A stretch of 64,000 nt of DNA from a phage: sequence record PX393108.1; one strand, written 5' to 3'. Numbering within the stretch: the stretch's first letter is position 1; every line of letters begins with the position of its first letter. The translations under genes and the position numbers were made by a program. Positions 5,759 to 36,508 of the stretch are shown piece after piece. The notes under the pieces are model-generated. The model was given only the letters and a program-made list of their open reading frames with translations. It made no database searches and was not told the origin of the DNA.

Positions 5759-6607
5759 TTAATCAACTGCTATTGGATGAATAGCATTAAACTTATGAAA
5801 CGCTTCTGATTTTTCTTTGCGCGAAACACACATGCGAAGAACCTTTAATGGCTCGTCTTCTTCACCTAATGATTTTCGTTTTTCAATATTAGAAGTTTTC
5901 CAACGAGCTTGCTCTGGAAACTCTCTATTGATTTGCTCAAGAGCTCTATTATGTTTTGAATTACTACGAATTGAACTACATCCGCCTGGAGCTTGTGCTT
6001 TTCCAGATACAACCAGATATTTGAACAAGGCCAAATGCGGATAACCTTGATTAATTAAATTGAGAAATGCATACATATCTTCGCATAAATCAATTTTTCC
6101 ATACCCAATTTGTTCTGTTGTAAGTTTTCCAAGGTCATACCATGTATTCGTGAATCCATATGAATTTTCACGATAATTACCCCAAGATGAAGTAATTTTA
6201 AAAATAGGTAGACGAGCATGACCGTGATAATACCCGCAATCCATGGCATCTTCAACGTATTGAATCAATTCATAGAACTGTTCACGAGTTAACTGATTAA
6301 TTTTATCTACGCAGCGACGATCATCTTTCTTTCGCATTGAACTCATACGAATAGTAGTATCATCGTCAATCATCCAAATTCGTTGACCTGCATACATATC
6401 AGTAATTGCTTTACGAGTACCAGCAATTCCGTTAACATCATCAGGAATAGTTATAATTTTAGCTCTAGACCCGTAAGCGTCATAATAAGCTTTTTCTTCG
6501 TGTTCACGTACTACAATATGAGGTTCATAATCAGATGGAAACATATCAAGGGCAGAAACTGCCCCTACGCGTTGATAGCTTGGAATTACGAATTGAATCA
6601 TTTCCAC
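5759..6607 (-). CDS. Putative GT-A fold glycosyltransferase at the position of T4 beta-glucosyltransferase
   Basis: 282 aa; N-terminal VIPSYQR nucleotide-sugar binding-like motif and WMIDDD (DXD) motif; lies between uvsX and 42; not the T4 beta-gt sequence. Confidence 0.55.
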   Translation of the reverse strand: MEMIQFVIPSYQRVGAVSALDMFPSDYEPHIVVREHEEKAYYDAYGSRAKIITIPDDVNGIAGTRKAITDMYAGQRIWMIDDDTTIRMSSMRKKDDRRCVDKINQLTREQFYELIQYVEDAMDCGYYHGHARLPIFKITSSWGNYRENSYGFTNTWYDLGKLTTEQIGYGKIDLCEDMYAFLNLINQGYPHLALFKYLVVSGKAQAPGGCSSIRSNSKHNRALEQINREFPEQARWKTSNIEKRKSLGEEDEPLKVLRMCVSRKEKSEAFHKFNAIHPIAVD

Positions 6608-7338
6608 TCACCGTTATAATCTTTTTTCGCAATATGGGTTTCGCCAGTTTTCCACCAATGGTCAACCAAATAAAAATGACGGGAATACACATGAAGGCTC
6701 CCGACATTCCATATAATGGAACCTGCTTTATACTGACGAGTTGAATCACCTGCATTCAAATCAGATACTAATTTATCTAGTACGTATTTTTGCCATGCAT
6801 AATCATTACGGAATCCGAAGACCACGTCATTTGAACGCATGTTAACCACTGCATTAATTTTCTTATCACGAATCAGGTACTGTACTGTATTAGTACACAT
6901 GAAATCTGACATGCCATCTTTATTGTAGTCAAATTGCATGGATGGACGAGTATAAATCATGATACCACGTCGAGAATCAGGATTTTGACCAAGTTCAGCT
7001 AAACACATATCATACTGGGCATAGTTATCTTCTGACCAGATGGCCCAACCATAATTCGAGTTAATTTCGCCTTTAGAAGATGCTACCTGCTGCCAAATCT
7101 TTGGTGTTTCACCTGGAATATCTTTAACAAACAGACTTTGAGACTTATACCATTCAAGTTCACGCTGAATGTATTCATCATTAAGAGCGCCAAAAATAAA
7201 AGGTTCATCTGCTACAAATGATGCACCAATAATTTCAATAGTTTTAACACCGGTTTTATCAATTACGAAATCTTTTTCCTTTAATGCAATTCCCAAATGA
7301 AGACGGATTTCTTCAACTGTCATAGAATCATTAATCAT
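6598..7338 (-). CDS. 42: dCMP hydroxymethylase gp42
   Basis: 246 aa, thymidylate synthase-like fold; near-identical to recalled T4 gp42. Confidence 0.9.
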   Translation of the reverse strand: MINDSMTVEEIRLHLGIALKEKDFVIDKTGVKTIEIIGASFVADEPFIFGALNDEYIQRELEWYKSQSLFVKDIPGETPKIWQQVASSKGEINSNYGWAIWSEDNYAQYDMCLAELGQNPDSRRGIMIYTRPSMQFDYNKDGMSDFMCTNTVQYLIRDKKINAVVNMRSNDVVFGFRNDYAWQKYVLDKLVSDLNAGDSTRQYKAGSIIWNVGSLHVYSRHFYLVDHWWKTGETHIAKKDYNGEWK

Positions 7339-22815: not shown

Positions 22816-23124
22816 TTAGTCTTCTATGATATCTCTATCATATCCAAGTGAAATGAGAGTTTCTTTGAAGTGTTTAATGTTCTTTTGTCTAGAATCATTG
22901 ATGAAAATGACTGGATAACGAATGTTAAGAGATGTGAATCCAGCGCGTTTAGCAAGAGATACAATCAGTGGACGATCATACTCAATCTTACCATTATTTG
23001 TAAGAACTTTATAGAAAGTAAAAGGAGCATTGAGCTCCTTTAGAAGTTTTGTAACTGATTGACATCCAGGACAACGACCTACTTCATCTGGAATTCCATA
23101 GACTTCAATCTTGTTTTGTTTCAC
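22816..23124 (-). CDS. nrdH: Glutaredoxin-like protein NrdH
   Basis: 102 aa; CPGC redox motif; adjacent to nrdG and nrdD. Confidence 0.7.
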   Translation of the reverse strand: MKQNKIEVYGIPDEVGRCPGCQSVTKLLKELNAPFTFYKVLTNNGKIEYDRPLIVSLAKRAGFTSLNIRYPVIFINDSRQKNIKHFKETLISLGYDRDIIED

Positions 23125-23126
23125 AA

Positions 23127-23363
23127 CTATTCCTTACTAAGAGCAGCATTCAGCTTATTAGTAATTTTATCCAGACGCTCATTGAACTCACTAGAAGATA
23201 GTCCTTTTTCTGGAGAAATCAAACTAATCACGAAAAATATAGCAATAAAAGGAATAAGGAAAATAGCTCCAACTGCCATAAACAAAAAGAATGTTACGGT
23301 TGTAAGAAAATCAGCTAAACCTTTACGAAATTTATACATATTTACCCTTAATTGATTAACCAA
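23127..23363 (-). CDS. Hypothetical membrane protein
   Basis: 78 aa with one long hydrophobic segment. Confidence 0.4.
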   Translation of the reverse strand: MVNQLRVNMYKFRKGLADFLTTVTFFLFMAVGAIFLIPFIAIFFVISLISPEKGLSSSEFNERLDKITNKLNAALSKE

Positions 23364-23453
23364 GCATTGATAAGCACTAAACTATATTGCGAATAAAATT
23401 CTGGACCAAAATGAAAAATCATATCATTTATAGTGTCCATAATATAATTCAAT

Positions 23454-23924
23454 TTAATCATGTTTCCACACCCCATCGGTATTTGACCAAAGTCGCTGAT
23501 TATCTGAACCTCGCCACAGCTTTTTGGTCGGAAGATTTTTCTCATACTTCCCATCAATAATAACATCAACATATTTAAGCATTTCTAGTTGTTTAATATC
23601 TTCAAACTTATATCCTGTCCACAACCAAATGCTTTTATTCGGATAAAGATTTTTTACTGTTTGAACAATGCAATGAACAACATCTCGGTTATCAGGATAA
23701 AGAGGGTCTCCTCCAGTTATAGTTAATCCTTCTATATAATCATTATTCAAACATTCAATTAATTGTTCTAGTGTTTCACCAGTGAATGGAACGCCATTTC
23801 TAGCATTCCACGTTGATTTATTATAACACCCTTCGCATTTATGCAAACAACCTGTAACGAAAAGAACGACCCTGCATCCAGGGCCATTCACAAAATCACA
23901 GGGATAAAATCTATCGTAATTCAT
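23454..23924 (-). CDS. nrdG: Anaerobic ribonucleotide reductase activating protein NrdG (radical SAM)
   Basis: 156 aa; CLHKCEGC (CX3CX2C) cluster motif. Confidence 0.85.
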   Translation of the reverse strand: MNYDRFYPCDFVNGPGCRVVLFVTGCLHKCEGCYNKSTWNARNGVPFTGETLEQLIECLNNDYIEGLTITGGDPLYPDNRDVVHCIVQTVKNLYPNKSIWLWTGYKFEDIKQLEMLKYVDVIIDGKYEKNLPTKKLWRGSDNQRLWSNTDGVWKHD

Positions 23925-25738
23925 TGGTGTTTAACCCTATGCATGATTTCTTTATTTTTGCCGAGATTAAATCCGCGTTCATTCGGATTTCCCAAATAAC
24001 CACAAGTTCTTCTTATTGTGTTCATCTTTTTAGGATCAGTTTCTCCACAAATAGAACAAACAAATCCGTTTTCAGTAGGAGTCATTTCATGGGTACTTCC
24101 ACACGTAAAACATTTATCTACTGGCATGTTAACGCCAAAATAATCTAAATGTTGCGCAGCATAATCCCATACAGCCTCAAGACCTTTTAGGTTATTTTTC
24201 ATATCAGGAAGTTCAACATAAGAAATGTGACCACCTGTCGCAATGAAATGATATGGTGCTTCACGAGAAATCTTTTCAAACGGAGTGATATTTTCTTCTA
24301 CTGAAACATGGAAACTGTTAGTGTACCAGCCTTTATCAGTAACATCTTTTACACTTCCATATTTTTCGGTATCAAGTTTACAGAAGCGATAGCACAGGTT
24401 TTCAGCAGGTGTAGAATACAAGCTAAAAGCAAAACCAGTTCTTTCAGTCCACTGCTTAAGACGAGCATTCATTTTAGTTAAAATTTCCTGTCCAATATCA
24501 CGACCGACAAGAATATTCAATTCGTGAATACCAATGTATCCTAAGGACACTGAACTTCTACCGTTTTTAAATAACTCAATTATATCGTCATCAGGTTTAA
24601 GACGAACCCCGAATGCACCTTCTTGGTAAAGAATAGGAGCAACAGTAGCTTTAACTCCTTTTAAGGAACTAATTCTACACATCAATGCTTCAAAACATAA
24701 ATCCATTCTCTCATTGAACAATTCGGCAAATTTCTGTTCATTGAACTGTGTTCCAATATAAGAATCTAGTGCAATGCGAGGAAGATTCAGTGTTACAACA
24801 CCAAGATTATTACGTCCATCAAGAATTTCATTACCAGTCGAATCTTTCCATACACCCAAGAAACTACGACAACCCATTGGAGAAACAGGAATAGATGAAC
24901 CGGTGATAGCTTTATTGTTCTTAGCCGAAATGATGTCAGGATACATTCTTTTACTTGCACATTCTAGAGCAAGCTGCTTAATATCATAGTTCGGATCGTC
25001 TTTATAAAGATTAACACCTTCTTCAACGAACATAACAAGCTTAGGGAAAATAGGAGTTATCCCATCACGACCAAGGCCTTTAATACGATTTTTCAGAATT
25101 GCTTTCTGAATCATTCGTTCAGTCCAGTCAGTTCCCGTACCAAATGTAATTGTTACAAAAGGCGTTTGTCCGTTTGAACTAAAGAGAGTATTTACTTCGT
25201 ATTCATAAGCTTGGAATGCATCGTATACATCTTTTTCTGTTTTAGATTGGGCATAATTCAACGCATCAGCGATTTGCCATTTTTCTGCGTCCTCAATATG
25301 TTTTGCATAGGTGCGTTTAACATAAGGAGAAAGTACTTTGTCTACATTCGCAAAAGTCGTTCCACCATATTGATGGGAAGCAACCTGTGCAGTAATTTGC
25401 GCCATAATTGCAGTAGCAACACCGATTGATTTAGGAGTTTCAATCTGTGCATTACCGAGCTTAAATCCGTTCTCAAGCATTCCTTTTAAATCTACTAAAC
25501 AGCAATTAGTAAATGGAAGAGCAGGGGAATAATCAATATCATGGAAATGAATAATTCCGCTTTCATGCGCTTTCATAATAAAAGACGGGACCATATTTTT
25601 GGCAATGTGTTTAGACACAATACCAGCCATAAGGTCCCGTTGAGTTGGAAAAACACGAGAATCTTTATTAGCATTCTCGTTTAAAAGGTCTTTATTAGTT
25701 TTATGAATCAATCCTTCAATTTCTTTTTCAATTGTCAT
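23921..25738 (-). CDS. nrdD: Anaerobic ribonucleoside-triphosphate reductase NrdD, uninterrupted
   Basis: 605 aa; C-terminal glycyl radical motif RRTCGYLG; zinc ribbon CFTCGS...CSICG. Confidence 0.9.
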   Translation of the reverse strand: MTIEKEIEGLIHKTNKDLLNENANKDSRVFPTQRDLMAGIVSKHIAKNMVPSFIMKAHESGIIHFHDIDYSPALPFTNCCLVDLKGMLENGFKLGNAQIETPKSIGVATAIMAQITAQVASHQYGGTTFANVDKVLSPYVKRTYAKHIEDAEKWQIADALNYAQSKTEKDVYDAFQAYEYEVNTLFSSNGQTPFVTITFGTGTDWTERMIQKAILKNRIKGLGRDGITPIFPKLVMFVEEGVNLYKDDPNYDIKQLALECASKRMYPDIISAKNNKAITGSSIPVSPMGCRSFLGVWKDSTGNEILDGRNNLGVVTLNLPRIALDSYIGTQFNEQKFAELFNERMDLCFEALMCRISSLKGVKATVAPILYQEGAFGVRLKPDDDIIELFKNGRSSVSLGYIGIHELNILVGRDIGQEILTKMNARLKQWTERTGFAFSLYSTPAENLCYRFCKLDTEKYGSVKDVTDKGWYTNSFHVSVEENITPFEKISREAPYHFIATGGHISYVELPDMKNNLKGLEAVWDYAAQHLDYFGVNMPVDKCFTCGSTHEMTPTENGFVCSICGETDPKKMNTIRRTCGYLGNPNERGFNLGKNKEIMHRVKHQ

Positions 25739-33952: not shown

Positions 33953-34921
33953 TTATTTCAGAAGAGTAACCTCAGCAATTTCTTCCCAACCGTTTTTGTC
34001 GGTCATAATAAAGTCAGCAAGATAAAGAGCAGTACGCAGTGAAACATTGCGTAAACGATTAACATTAACTTTCATCCATGATAATGCTTTATAAGTTTCT
34101 TCATCAGAAAGACCGCGCTTTTGCATCATGTCAGTTGAAAGAATAACATCTTCAACCCTGACCATAATTTCTTCATTAGTGTGAACACCCAAATCCAAAT
34201 AAACCGAGCGGGACACTAATGCTTGTAAATGTGGAGCAAGTTTAGTACCACGGTCTAATTCGCGGTCAATGTCAACGTTTGTGATAAAAACAATCGTTCC
34301 TTTAAATTCAAACTCACGGTCAATGCCTTTTTCTTCTAAGTAAGAAGATGCAGTGCTCCAGCAGACTTTACGGGTCTCTCCAGTGTCCAGAGCAGCTTTT
34401 AGAAGATTAAGAATGTCCATATCAGAGAAAACATCCACATCATCAATCAAAAGGACAGAATTCTCTTCACGATTATTCCAAAGCTGTTCATAAAGACCAA
34501 TACCAGAGATTTTACCATTAATGCTTTTATACTCAATGTATCCAATATCATTTGCTTTATTTAAAGCTTTATCTAAAGAATACGTTTTACCAATACCTGC
34601 TGCGCCAGAGATAATCAATGAACGAATATTTCCGTTAATAATACCATTCGTCATCATTCCCATAACATTAAATCTTTTATTAATGCGGGTTTTCATATCT
34701 TCATACGATTCTTTAACTTCCTCAACTTTTACACTATCATATGAAATATCTGATTTGTAAACCCAAACACCGCGACGTTTACCGTCAATTTCAACAAAAA
34801 CTTTACCATCTCCTTGTGCATCTACCGGAGCATTATCTGGGAACCATTCGCCTAAGAGCTCAAAAGTTCCAGAGATTTCTTTACCAAAGTAGATACCCTT
34901 ATTGATAGTTACAGTTTTCAT
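33953..34921 (-). CDS. Putative P-loop ATPase (AAA+-like; nrdC.10-like)
   Basis: Walker A GAAGIGKTYS and Walker B-like LLIDDVD; start moved to ATG after promoter-leader repeat. Confidence 0.5.
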   Translation of the reverse strand: MKTVTINKGIYFGKEISGTFELLGEWFPDNAPVDAQGDGKVFVEIDGKRRGVWVYKSDISYDSVKVEEVKESYEDMKTRINKRFNVMGMMTNGIINGNIRSLIISGAAGIGKTYSLDKALNKANDIGYIEYKSINGKISGIGLYEQLWNNREENSVLLIDDVDVFSDMDILNLLKAALDTGETRKVCWSTASSYLEEKGIDREFEFKGTIVFITNVDIDRELDRGTKLAPHLQALVSRSVYLDLGVHTNEEIMVRVEDVILSTDMMQKRGLSDEETYKALSWMKVNVNRLRNVSLRTALYLADFIMTDKNGWEEIAEVTLLK

Positions 34922-34951
34922 TTTATTCTCCAAATCCGTATCAGTTGATAG

Positions 34952-34988
34952 TTGTATAGTACCATAAAGCTTTATGCTTGTAAACTGT
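34952..34988 (-). promoter_or_regulatory. T4-type early promoter (copy 2 of repeated promoter-leader module)
   Basis: GTTTAC ... GGTACTATAC; 45 nt identical to copy at 8380-8425. Confidence 0.5.
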
Positions 34989-35016
34989 TTTGTGAAAATT
35001 TTTTGAAATAAAAAAA

Positions 35017-35035
35017 GGGAGCCCGAAGGCTCCCT
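35017..35035 (-). terminator. Hairpin terminator downstream of nucleotidyltransferase-like gene
   Basis: GGGAGCC-UUCG-GGCUCCC followed by U-run on minus strand. Confidence 0.5.
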
Positions 35036-35036
35036 A

Positions 35037-36050
35037 TCATTTATAATAACTTCGGTGGTTTTCAAGATAAACCCTCTCAAGGAAGTCATCCCAGAAACCC
35101 ATGTCTACTTTTTGTTGCATACCGTTCTTAGAAGCTTCAATGGATGCTGCTTCTACTTGATCGACCACATCTTCCAAAAACTCTTGAACAGTTTTAAATG
35201 GATGCTTACCCAGCTTCACGTCGAGAATAAATGGAGCGTCTTGAAGTGGATAAACTAAGTCACCGGTTTTGTAAATTTCCAATAGTTGGAGTCCACCACG
35301 ACAAGCATGACTCAGAGCTTTCCAGTCAATACCCTCATTCGCTTCAGCTTTACGAGCACGTTCACCATATTCAGCATCAAGTTTATTCAAAGACTGCTTA
35401 AGCTCAATAAGAGAAAGTGTAGTCTGATATTTACGACCCAACACAGTGTAAAACGTTTGTGGGCCTGTTTTCTCATGATTATGGAATACCCATTCGCAGA
35501 ACTCGTTTTCTGGAAGACGATGCTTAATATCTTCAACTTTAGTGCGACGAAGTCTATCAGGGATTCCTTCTTGATAGTCGACCCACTGGTCAGGGATTTG
35601 ATTAACTACTTTCAATACATCACGCAATGCGGCCAAACGAGAACCCTTGACACCATATTTAGAAGCTTGCTTGCGGACATATCCTAAATAAGATTTCATG
35701 TTAGTTGTATAAAAACGAGAACGATTGTCTTGAATAAACTTCCATACATCAGGCAAATCAGATTTAACTACCAGTTCAGGTGGAGTGTGGAGCATATCCA
35801 ATGCTACAGTTTCACCATCTGCTGCTAATTTAAAGAAATACTTAAGACTGTATAGTTCATGGTCAATATCATCTTTAGTGTTTTTAGATGATGTGTTGTT
35901 AGTGTTTTTACTCATATGCTCTTTAACATTTCCAATAAGAATATCGCGAGCAGGAGGAACAAAGATTTCTTTAAAATCTACATCAGATTCTGGAGTAGAA
36001 GTTCCATAAAGATGACTACCAAAATAGCTTTTCATTACTGTTTTCATCAT
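35037..36050 (-). CDS. Putative Pol-beta superfamily nucleotidyltransferase (nrdC.11-like)
   Basis: 337 aa; N-terminal GSHLYGTSTPESDVD matches the GS ... D-x-D nucleotidyltransferase signature. Confidence 0.5.
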   Translation of the reverse strand: MMKTVMKSYFGSHLYGTSTPESDVDFKEIFVPPARDILIGNVKEHMSKNTNNTSSKNTKDDIDHELYSLKYFFKLAADGETVALDMLHTPPELVVKSDLPDVWKFIQDNRSRFYTTNMKSYLGYVRKQASKYGVKGSRLAALRDVLKVVNQIPDQWVDYQEGIPDRLRRTKVEDIKHRLPENEFCEWVFHNHEKTGPQTFYTVLGRKYQTTLSLIELKQSLNKLDAEYGERARKAEANEGIDWKALSHACRGGLQLLEIYKTGDLVYPLQDAPFILDVKLGKHPFKTVQEFLEDVVDQVEAASIEASKNGMQQKVDMGFWDDFLERVYLENHRSYYK

Positions 36051-36508
36051 TCAGCCTTATATTCAATAACAGGACATACTTTAGCTTTACGCGCTTTTAA
36101 AAATTCGACGATAATAGATTTCTTTGGTTGAATAGGAGGTAAACCTTTATACGCCCTATCAATATTTTCTACATGTAAAGCATAATCCTTTTTCCATTTA
36201 TAATCTTTATATTTTTCATGCAGTTGTGCAGGAATAACAAATGAACCAATAATAAGTAAAACAAGCAAAATAGCAAGTATAAATGCTGATGGAATAAGAG
36301 TCCATAAACTACCAAAAATAAGCCATTTCTGCATGATTTCTGCGCAGATGATAGTTAGACCTGCTAGTATAGTACATCCGAAAAAAGAAACGAAAAATGT
36401 AGGGATAACAATAGACCAAAAATATGCACACAGTGTCTTAGGTCGTTTCCATTCGTCGTTAAACATTTTGAATAATTTATAGTGCCAAGAGCTTTCATTA
36501 ATAATCAT
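36047..36508 (-). CDS. Hypothetical membrane protein
   Basis: 153 aa; about three hydrophobic helices. Confidence 0.45.
   Translation of the reverse strand: MIINESSWHYKLFKMFNDEWKRPKTLCAYFWSIVIPTFFVSFFGCTILAGLTIICAEIMQKWLIFGSLWTLIPSAFILAILLVLLIIGSFVIPAQLHEKYKDYKWKKDYALHVENIDRAYKGLPPIQPKKSIIVEFLKARKAKVCPVIEYKAE

Follow-up and report, generated by a model that had tools for sequence, protein, structure and literature searches.

The founding case of RNA repair in the phage-host arms race is that of phage T4, which mends tRNA-Lys cut by the PrrC anticodon nuclease with the polynucleotide kinase/phosphatase PseT and RNA ligase 1 (Rnl1). A further nuclease, RloC, excises the wobble nucleotide besides cutting, and has reportedly been proposed to defeat PseT/Rnl1 repair through this nucleotide removal. 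Here we analyse two neighbouring genes of a T-even phage, nrdC.11 and nrdC.10, within the 64,000-nucleotide stretch of sequence record PX393108.1 (the window; positions count from its first letter). The reading that we favour, at a probability of roughly 0.55, is that they are two independent early accessory genes: nrdC.11 would encode an RNA nucleotidyltransferase (NTase) of the RlaP family that restores cleaved tRNA for PseT and Rnl1, and nrdC.10 would be separate from it.

The closest described relatives of NrdC.11 are the RlaP proteins. Burroughs and Aravind named PF10127 'RlaP' for the proximity of its genes to RNA ligase genes, and predicted that nucleotides lost from broken RNA are restored by it before ligation, for example after wobble removal by RloC (summarised in PMC7824862 and PMC6514570). 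Carruthers, Fatma and Huang have since described the activity of two RlaP enzymes of Pseudomonas in a preprint (December 2025); these add one or two nucleoside monophosphates (NMPs, or their deoxy forms, dNMPs) to the 3'-OH of RNA, label neither DNA nor E. coli proteins, favour Mn2+ and act preferentially on the 5' half of broken tRNA (bioRxiv 10.64898/2025.12.29.696909). RlaP also boosts the aminoacylation of re-ligated tRNA-Asp that is short of one nucleotide, and its 3'-OH product is said in the preprint's discussion to fit 5'-phosphate ligases such as Rnl1; T4 NrdC.11 is listed there as a PF10127 member of sequence similarity network cluster 5, with its function uncharacterised (bioRxiv 10.64898/2025.12.29.696909). 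The addition of 1-2 nucleotides to RNA 3' ends has been demonstrated for the canonical Pseudomonas enzymes only.

For the T4 genes themselves, Nolan et al. (2006) had reported a match of nrdC.11 to the nucleotidyltransferase domain COG3541 and a weak one of nrdC.10 to AAA (PMC1524935), and a genome-reduction study obtained viable T4 after loss of nrdC.11 to mobD.3 (PMC9825161); functional studies of nrdC.10 or nrdC.11 did not turn up in our literature searches. An earlier note on this DNA, written from the sequence alone, had called both functions unknown, which holds experimentally for the T4 proteins but not for the family and its predicted role, both already published (PMC1524935; PMC7824862; bioRxiv 10.64898/2025.12.29.696909). 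The RlaP family, its T4 member and the proposed repair role are thus on record, and we do not describe a new kind of system. New here are the neighbourhood evidence specific to the nrdC.11 clade, the observation of tandem paralogues and the unlinking of nrdC.10 from nrdC.11.

Identity of the two genes

The window derives from a T-even phage; it is AT-rich (~35% GC), carries almost all of its genes on the minus strand and, by comparison with Escherichia phage ime09 (Tequatrovirus), spans gene 61 to gene 7. The 3.1 kb around both genes are 97.7% identical in nucleotide sequence to ime09 and match 782 phage records. In ime09 the two open reading frames (ORFs) are annotated as nrdC.11 (1011 nt) and nrdC.10 (969 nt), inside the nrdC-mobD accessory region:

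35037..36050, minus strand: nrdC.11 coding sequence, 337 aa plus stop, RlaP-family Pol-beta nucleotidyltransferase (ORF, Pfam, PHROGs, ime09 annotation, AlphaFold2 (AF2) model)
33953..34921, minus strand: nrdC.10 coding sequence, 322 aa plus stop, stand-alone AAA+ ATPase (ORF, ime09 annotation)

By tblastn, nrdC.11 occurs in 1565 phage records and nrdC.10 in 1313. Judged from these sequence matches, both are real, conserved genes and orthologues of their T4 namesakes. The earlier note had placed both ORFs correctly and had likened them in size to T4 nrdC.10 and nrdC.11, with which the ime09 annotations and sizes agree.

Family, catalytic residues and structure of NrdC.11

Pfam recognises RlaP (PF10127) in NrdC.11 with E = 3.3e-11 and 43.8 bits against a gathering cutoff of 23; the match takes in residues 7-136 and covers positions 23-143 of the 249 in the model. 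The same family is matched by all 39 of 39 aligned non-redundant homologues (best E = 3e-16), and PHROGs places the protein in phrog_388, nucleotidyltransferase (E = 2.5e-136). When 1.8 billion cluster representatives were searched exhaustively, 826 clusters matched at E <= 1e-30, and among the 150 cluster matches listed nearly all are near full length. Conservation was read from 141 representatives at 33-55% identity, and that of a beta-rich insert from 145 aligned clade sequences. G11, S12, D23, D25, D61, D63 and D85 are invariant or nearly so in the 141 representatives, as are the C-terminal basic residues K131, R138, R231, K244, H248, R251 and K279; G11, S12, D23, D25 and D63 are each at least 98% conserved in the clade. 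The N-terminal signature of Pol-beta nucleotidyltransferases that the earlier note had picked out corresponds to residues 11-25, with their (near-)invariant G11, S12, D23 and D25. The main elements of the protein are:

35976..36020, minus strand: G11-S12 ... D23-x-D25 motif, GSHLYGTSTPESDVD, residues 11-25 (conservation; aligns with G27/S28 and D39-x-D41 of canonical RlaP)
35862..35864, minus strand: D63, candidate third catalytic aspartate (98% conserved; aligns with the invariant D72 of canonical RlaP)
35706..36050, minus strand: NTase core domain, residues 1-115 (AF2 model)
35424..35588, minus strand: beta-rich insert, residues 155-209, between helical segments (AF2; present in 137 of the 145 clade sequences)
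35043..35411, minus strand: C-terminal helical domain, residues 214-336, with conserved R231, K244, H248, R251 and K279 (AF2, conservation)

The AF2 model has a mean predicted local distance difference test score (pLDDT) of 89 and consists of the core (1-115), helices (119-149), the beta insert (155-209) and a helical bundle (214-336). Residues 40-60 (35871..35933, minus strand) form an Asn/Ser/Thr/Lys-rich low-complexity loop, SKNTNNTSSKNTKDD, with pLDDT ~69, which joins the DxD strand to the D61/D63 strand and contains N57, itself 99% conserved. Profile comparison by hhalign of the nrdC.11 clade with its canonical RlaP neighbours gave a probability of 94% and E = 1e-7 over the NTase core (columns 10-102), pairing D23, D25 and D63 with D39, D41 and D72 of canonical RlaP, and D85 with E94.

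Searches of PDB sequences with single proteins and with profiles detected no relative of nrdC.11 or nrdC.10 in a copy evidently without the PfRlaP structure, and Foldseek against the PDB returned nothing for the NrdC.11 model at E <= 0.001. NrdC.11 might nucleotidylate a protein or a small molecule, for example neutralising a host HEPN RNase toxin by AMPylation as MntA does, or modifying a metabolite in the manner of kanamycin nucleotidyltransferase. We consider this improbable: the structural matches behind it are weak (template modelling (TM) score 0.2-0.37), the Pseudomonas RlaP enzymes left E. coli proteins and DNA unlabelled (bioRxiv 10.64898/2025.12.29.696909), and the gene neighbourhoods of the clade, described below, are those of RNA repair and not of toxin-antitoxin systems. 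Tested against the MNT/MntA model (type VII toxin-antitoxin) of NCBIfam, NrdC.11 scored 13.2 bits against a cutoff of 60, with E = 0.06 over 18 residues, and its gene is flanked by a membrane-protein ORF and nrdC.10, with no adjacent HEPN toxin gene. Still more remote is the synthesis by NrdC.11 of a signal or decoy, whether an oligonucleotide or a cyclic nucleotide, such as a HalB-like oligodeoxyadenylate keeping a host Hailong channel closed or a product of the CD-NTase kind; the likeness is confined to the generic NTase core, no PDB profile match to HalB was obtained, and the neighbourhoods again point to RNA repair. PADLOC matched neither nrdC.11 nor nrdC.10, and for CD-NTases (cGAS/DncV-like) there was no Pfam or PADLOC match and only insignificant Foldseek probabilities of 0.10-0.13 (CdnD, DwCdnB). 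The earlier note's suggestions of an enzyme that makes or destroys nucleotide signals and of an antitoxin nucleotidyltransferase therefore found no backing in Pfam, PADLOC or significant fold matches to CD-NTases, or beyond the 18-residue MntA motif. We rejected the CD-NTase, antitoxin (MntA) and HalB-like readings, behind which stands only a shared core fold or that motif.

Gene neighbourhoods of the nrdC.11 clade

Scanning one genome per bacterial or archaeal species with the clade profile, and clustering and Pfam-scanning the neighbours, we obtained 80 loci with full-length nrdC.11-type genes (32-54% identity over residues ~2-324), many of them on megabase-scale chromosomal contigs. The recurrent neighbours are genes of RNA repair:

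Canonical full-length RlaP (PF10127, E = 5e-79): 18 of 80 loci, mostly on the same strand and 2-110 bp downstream, at 1.2-4.3 kb in 5
RtcB: 7 of 80 loci, within ~4 kb of the nrdC.11-type gene
Bacterial Pnkp (kinase, phosphoesterase and ligase domains): 6 of 80 loci, at five of them overlapping the nrdC.11-type gene or just upstream of it, at the sixth 2.2 kb downstream
Ro60 (TROVE): 4 of 80 loci (L158, L184, L201, L224), upstream of the NTase gene
T4-type polynucleotide kinase/phosphatase (PNK): 3 of 80 loci, near the nrdC.11-type gene
RtcA: 2 loci, near the nrdC.11-type gene

At least one of canonical RlaP, Pnkp, RtcB, Ro60 and T4-type PNK lies near the nrdC.11-type gene at 29 of the 80 loci, and a repair-type neighbour is present in 20 of the 48 loci that have at least 3 kb of flank on each side. 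Tandem arrangements of an nrdC.11-type gene and a canonical RlaP gene occur at L152, L154, L162, L172, L184, L199, L204, L215, L216, L223 and others, sometimes within Pnkp or RtcB operons. Going by gene order, these tandem paralogues suggest non-redundant roles or a heteromer, and the nrdC.11 clade may represent a distinct paralogue whose specificity (for the nucleotide or the end, or through a role as partner subunit) differs from that of the characterised RlaP.

Canonical RlaP was found in 86 phage records, mostly phiKZ-like, and in no Escherichia T4-like phage. Distant phage homologues agree with the bacterial neighbourhoods: Sinorhizobium phage phiM7 carries two RNA ligase genes within 5 kb of its nrdC.11 homologue, Vibrio phage 1.084.O has a CCA-type NTase gene next to it (see below), and two IMG/VR contigs (L075:4210-5847 and L078:9876-11495) have Ro60 (TROVE + vWA) within ~2 kb of distant homologues. 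All-against-all BLAST of the neighbours of distant phage NTase homologues gave none common to more than three loci, and Pfam scans of these regions returned scattered Ro60, CCA-type NTase and 3'-5' exoribonuclease genes and no fixed partner. The association with RNA ligase and end-healing genes is absent from the window itself and present for the clade in bacteria and in phage phiM7.

Because of the Pfam match, the hhalign alignment of the core and the clade's own RNA-repair neighbourhoods, the nrdC.11 clade is, on the comparative evidence, a true but divergent branch of RlaP, with links to RNA repair of its own. The earlier note's remark that the enzyme could modify RNA or tRNA pointed in the right direction, given the Pfam family and the bacterial orthologues in RNA-repair operons.

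The chief competitor to a role in mending cleaved tRNA is that NrdC.11 extends RNA 3' ends for another purpose, such as the rebuilding of damaged tRNA 3'-CCA ends or a tailing of host or phage RNAs that changes their stability. The family evidence from Pfam and hhalign would apply equally to such an enzyme, and Pseudomonas RlaP labels full-length tRNA and rRNA-sized species with little specificity for the nucleoside triphosphate (bioRxiv 10.64898/2025.12.29.696909). In Vibrio phage 1.084.O (L003:3610-5924), moreover, a 446-aa PolyA_pol/CCA-type NTase, whose head domain is of the poly(A)-polymerase/CCA-adding type (PF01743, E = 4e-14), is encoded by a gene that runs at its 3' end into the nrdC.11 homologue; the two genes may be a two-NTase module for RNA 3' ends in a phage that is not T4-like. 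However, the commonest bacterial neighbours, Pnkp, RtcB, PNK and Ro60, argue for the repair of broken RNA and not for tailing, and addition by RlaP is limited to 1-2 nucleotides (bioRxiv 10.64898/2025.12.29.696909). We regard this competitor as unlikely, though the most serious of the alternatives.

Relation between nrdC.11 and nrdC.10

The earlier note had treated the two genes as a pair. Two signals lie between them:

35006..35035, minus strand: terminator-like hairpin with an 8-bp stem, UUCG loop and U-run, directly after the nrdC.11 stop (-17.5 kcal/mol, z = -3.8)
34956..34984, minus strand: predicted promoter-like site of the early sigma-70 type, TTTACA-17-TACTAT plus a TG extension, ahead of nrdC.10

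Pairing of the hairpin stem is kept through compensatory changes in other genera, where the proteins are 76-82% identical. The promoter match is weak when taken alone, since 11.7 +/- 3.2 such sites are expected and 20 were found; yet genera at the same protein identity retain both GTTTACA and TGnTAnnAT. A separate promoter for the ATPase gene, as proposed in the earlier note, is therefore predicted at a site conserved across genera.

Linkage of the two genes is patchy. The ATPase gene lies within 8 kb of the NTase gene, always downstream and on the same strand, on 40 of 78 phage NTase contigs and is lacking there on the other 38; of 55 ATPase contigs, 39 show the linkage and 16 have no NTase gene upstream. 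In T4-like phages (loci L006-L057) the spacer measures anything between 112 and 2290 bp, and extra genes have therefore repeatedly been inserted between nrdC.11 and nrdC.10. On five contigs, including Aeromonas phages and the KVP40-like phage VH7D, the two genes are 40-110 kb apart, and their record counts diverge: Klebsiella phages have 286 for nrdC.11 vs 149 for nrdC.10, Vibrio phages 59 vs 121. No nrdC.10-like ATPase gene occurs at any of the 80 bacterial and archaeal nrdC.11-type loci.

A two-component system, in which for instance the ATPase delivers or remodels the RNA substrate of the NTase, would explain why strand and order are the same wherever both genes are local (40 of the 78 NTase loci, with identities as low as 51% for the NTase and 60% for the ATPase). 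Such a partnership is nevertheless hard to reconcile with a conserved terminator and promoter between the genes, with spacing that varies so widely, with their unlinking in Aeromonas and KVP40-like phages, with the many lineages that have one without the other, and with the bacterial loci; we give it very little weight. The operon test, applied to co-transcription signals and to conserved linkage across lineages, likewise came out against a gene pair. The adjacency is best explained, as far as gene order can tell, by conserved synteny of the nrdC-mobD accessory region within the T4-like lineage of enterobacteria and Acinetobacter. Since a terminator and a promoter intervene, and since linkage is patchy in phages, broken by long distances in some and missing in bacteria, we treat nrdC.10 as independent of nrdC.11.

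The nrdC.10 ATPase

The ATPase assignment made in the earlier note stands, both Walker motifs being invariant in 74 homologues. The elements of this gene are:

34928..34931, minus strand: GGAG ribosome-binding site (read from the sequence; GGA conserved)
34736..34921, minus strand: small N-terminal beta domain, residues 1-62 (AF2; missing in jumbo-phage and Roseobacter siphophage homologues, which match 76-322 only)
34583..34609, minus strand: Walker A, S105-T113, SGAAGIGKT (invariant G106, A107, G109, G111 and K112)
34439..34456, minus strand: Walker B, V156-D161, VLLIDD (invariant D160 and D161)
33962..34177, minus strand: AAA+ lid domain, residues 249-320, with invariant R291 and R296 as sensor-2 candidates (AF2, conservation)

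In the 74 homologues, at 55-89% identity, GAAGIGKT (106-113), LLIDD (157-161), N215, R238, R291 and R296 are invariant. In the AF2 model (mean pLDDT 89.9) the beta domain (1-62) is followed by a long helix, by an AAA+ core in which an insertion separates helix 3 from the sensor-1 strand, and by a helical lid; the AAA+ hallmarks Walker A, Walker B, sensor 1, arginine finger and alpha-helical lid are all present. Among Pfam families, AAA_14, AAA_22, AAA_16, nSTAND3 and AAA all stayed under their cutoffs, NCBIfam gave only Hda at noise level (E = 0.017), and the PHROGs family is labelled 'unknown function'. From sequence and model together, nrdC.10 is a real AAA+ ATPase without an assignable clade or substrate, and is probably an oligomeric remodelling motor.

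Beyond T4-like phages, homologues of nrdC.10 occur in an Ackermannviridae phage, in a Roseobacter siphophage (Xiamenvirus, near replication genes), in Eneladusvirus jumbo phages and in Vibrio chromosomal elements, in all of which no NTase gene was found nearby. A conserved partner was sought in Aeromonas, KVP40-like, Ackermannviridae, Xiamenvirus and Eneladusvirus phages and in Vibrio chromosomal elements, and only lineage-specific synteny emerged. Two Vibrio homologues (55-58% identity; L145 of Vibrio sp. ER1A, JPJA01000037.1, and L146 of V. parahaemolyticus, ABQCSY010000007.1) sit in elements whose other genes include those for large serine recombinases and AntA, an antirestriction-like gene and small phage-like ORFs. 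From this, the ATPase appears to move between lytic T4-like phages and integrative elements.

A longer nrdC.10 of 377-378 aa, starting at ATG 35089, was considered and rejected, as it reads through the terminator and the promoter and as homologues start at MKTVTI. This long gene call, which is the representative of the 246-member metagenomic cluster P0121 and overlaps the 3' end of nrdC.11 (34922..35089), is most likely an artefact of automatic annotation.

Surroundings and annotation

A 153-aa predicted membrane-protein ORF resembling RB69ORF104c (36047..36508, minus strand) overlaps the nrdC.11 start by ATGA, and because of this overlap the translation of nrdC.11 is probably coupled to it. 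In T4 this slot is occupied by the homing endonuclease gene mobD (PMC2988022), which is missing from the slot upstream of nrdC.11 in PX393108.1. The region at ~6200-7050 of the window corresponds by homology to ime09 23107-23949, where ime09 has a beta-glucosyl-HMC-alpha-glucosyltransferase gene (HMC, hydroxymethylcytosine) adjoining gene 42; from the DNA glucosylation pattern of ime09, which is of the T2/T6 and not of the T4 type, the window phage is probably T2/T6-like.

In GenBank and UniRef, records of homologues of both genes are often named 'thioredoxin', a label evidently spread from the locus name nrdC, and others 'HNH homing endonuclease', 'clamp loader' or 'RarA'. The predicted domain content bears out none of these names.

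A proposed role in tRNA repair

Both pseT and rnlA are encoded by ime09, so that the partners of the proposed pathway are available in this type of genome. In the scheme that we envisage, a host anticodon nuclease of the RloC type would cut a tRNA and trim off at least one nucleotide, and PseT would leave a 3'-OH and a 5'-phosphate at the break. NrdC.11, by means of D23, D25, D63 and two divalent metal ions, would then extend the 5' fragment at its 3'-OH by one or two NMPs, and RNA ligase 1 (or 2) would seal the break, a fraction of functional tRNA being regained. The order PseT, NrdC.11, Rnl1 is favoured because the 3'-OH of an RlaP product is what the 5'-phosphate ligase Rnl1 needs. By analogy with the Pseudomonas enzymes, we infer that NrdC.11 would have the 1-2 nucleotide addition activity and would cooperate with PseT and Rnl1 against nucleotide-excising nucleases. 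More specifically, and more tentatively than the repair role as such, NrdC.11 could be the missing third enzyme of T-even tRNA repair, re-adding the wobble nucleotide or nucleotides excised by 'repair-proof' nucleases of the RloC type and serving the phage as a counter-counter-defence.

Several observations weigh against this proposal. In ime09, nrdC.11 lies ~80 kb from pseT and rnlA. The literature holds no assay of NrdC.11 or of any member of its clade, and the loss of nrdC.11 tolerated in T4 genome reduction fits an accessory role and gives no positive phenotype (PMC9825161). The hhalign alignment extends only over the N-terminal ~100 residues, the C-terminal two thirds, including the beta insert, being unaligned with characterised RlaP. 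No recognised RNA-repair neighbour was found at 51 of the 80 bacterial loci, many of them on short contigs. Furthermore, the bacterial nrdC.11 type usually stands beside canonical RlaP, so that their activities may differ, and T-even phages carry the nrdC.11 type only. Finally, nrdC.10 and nrdC.11 stay adjacent among the T4-like phages of enterobacteria and Acinetobacter even where NTase identity falls to 51%, and a loose functional link between them, although without specific support, is possible.

Should NrdC.11 indeed restore the excised nucleotide, one more round of the arms race would be documented, and a T4 gene that has been an orphan for 30 years would acquire a function. The repair hypothesis is testable and relevant to this classic arms race, though unsurprising to a specialist. 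For annotation, it is of value that nrdC.10 is not part of an nrdC.11 system, that the 'thioredoxin' label is wrong for both genes, and that full-length nrdC.11-type enzymes are found in bacterial Pnkp, RtcB and Ro60 operons, as a rule with a canonical RlaP next to them.

Comparison with known systems

Among known AAA+ proteins, those with an insertion before sensor 1 (the MoxR-type CbbQ/NorQ and NtrC-type activators) and the initiator/clamp-loader group (DnaA, ORC/Cdc6 and RFC) share 9-17% identity with nrdC.10. It has DD instead of DE in Walker B and an N-terminal beta domain of its own, and the partners typical of the MoxR or loader groups (vWA for MoxR) were not found near it.

The kanamycin nucleotidyltransferase ANT(4') and minimal NTases with a HEPN-like C-terminal domain share with NrdC.11 the succession of an NTase domain and a helical bundle, and ANT(4') is its best Foldseek match; this match is, however, very weak (E = 4e-3, TM ~0.3, 9% identity), and there is no sign of an antibiotic or small-molecule substrate. 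Hailong HalB has only the core fold in common with NrdC.11, without sequence relation or a HalA-like partner gene, and in another gene context.

The T4 PseT + Rnl1 repair of PrrC damage is closer, since pseT and rnlA occur in the same genome type and their 3'-OH/5'-phosphate chemistry suits the product of an RlaP enzyme. The classical pathway, in contrast, needs no nucleotide addition, nrdC.11 is ~80 kb off, and the participation of NrdC.11 would be by analogy.

The closest system is canonical RlaP itself. NrdC.11 passes the Pfam threshold of that family, has the same set of G-S, DxD and third Asp by hhalign, in the AF2 model likewise follows its NTase domain with a helical domain, and has bacterial orthologues that sit with RtcB, Pnkp, PNK and Ro60. 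It differs in length (337 aa against ~250-270 aa, with only the N-terminal ~100 residues alignable), in its beta insert at 155-209 and in a divergent C-terminal bundle; the T-even gene adjoins no ligase gene, and the bacterial nrdC.11 type stands in tandem with canonical RlaP, which suggests a distinct role.

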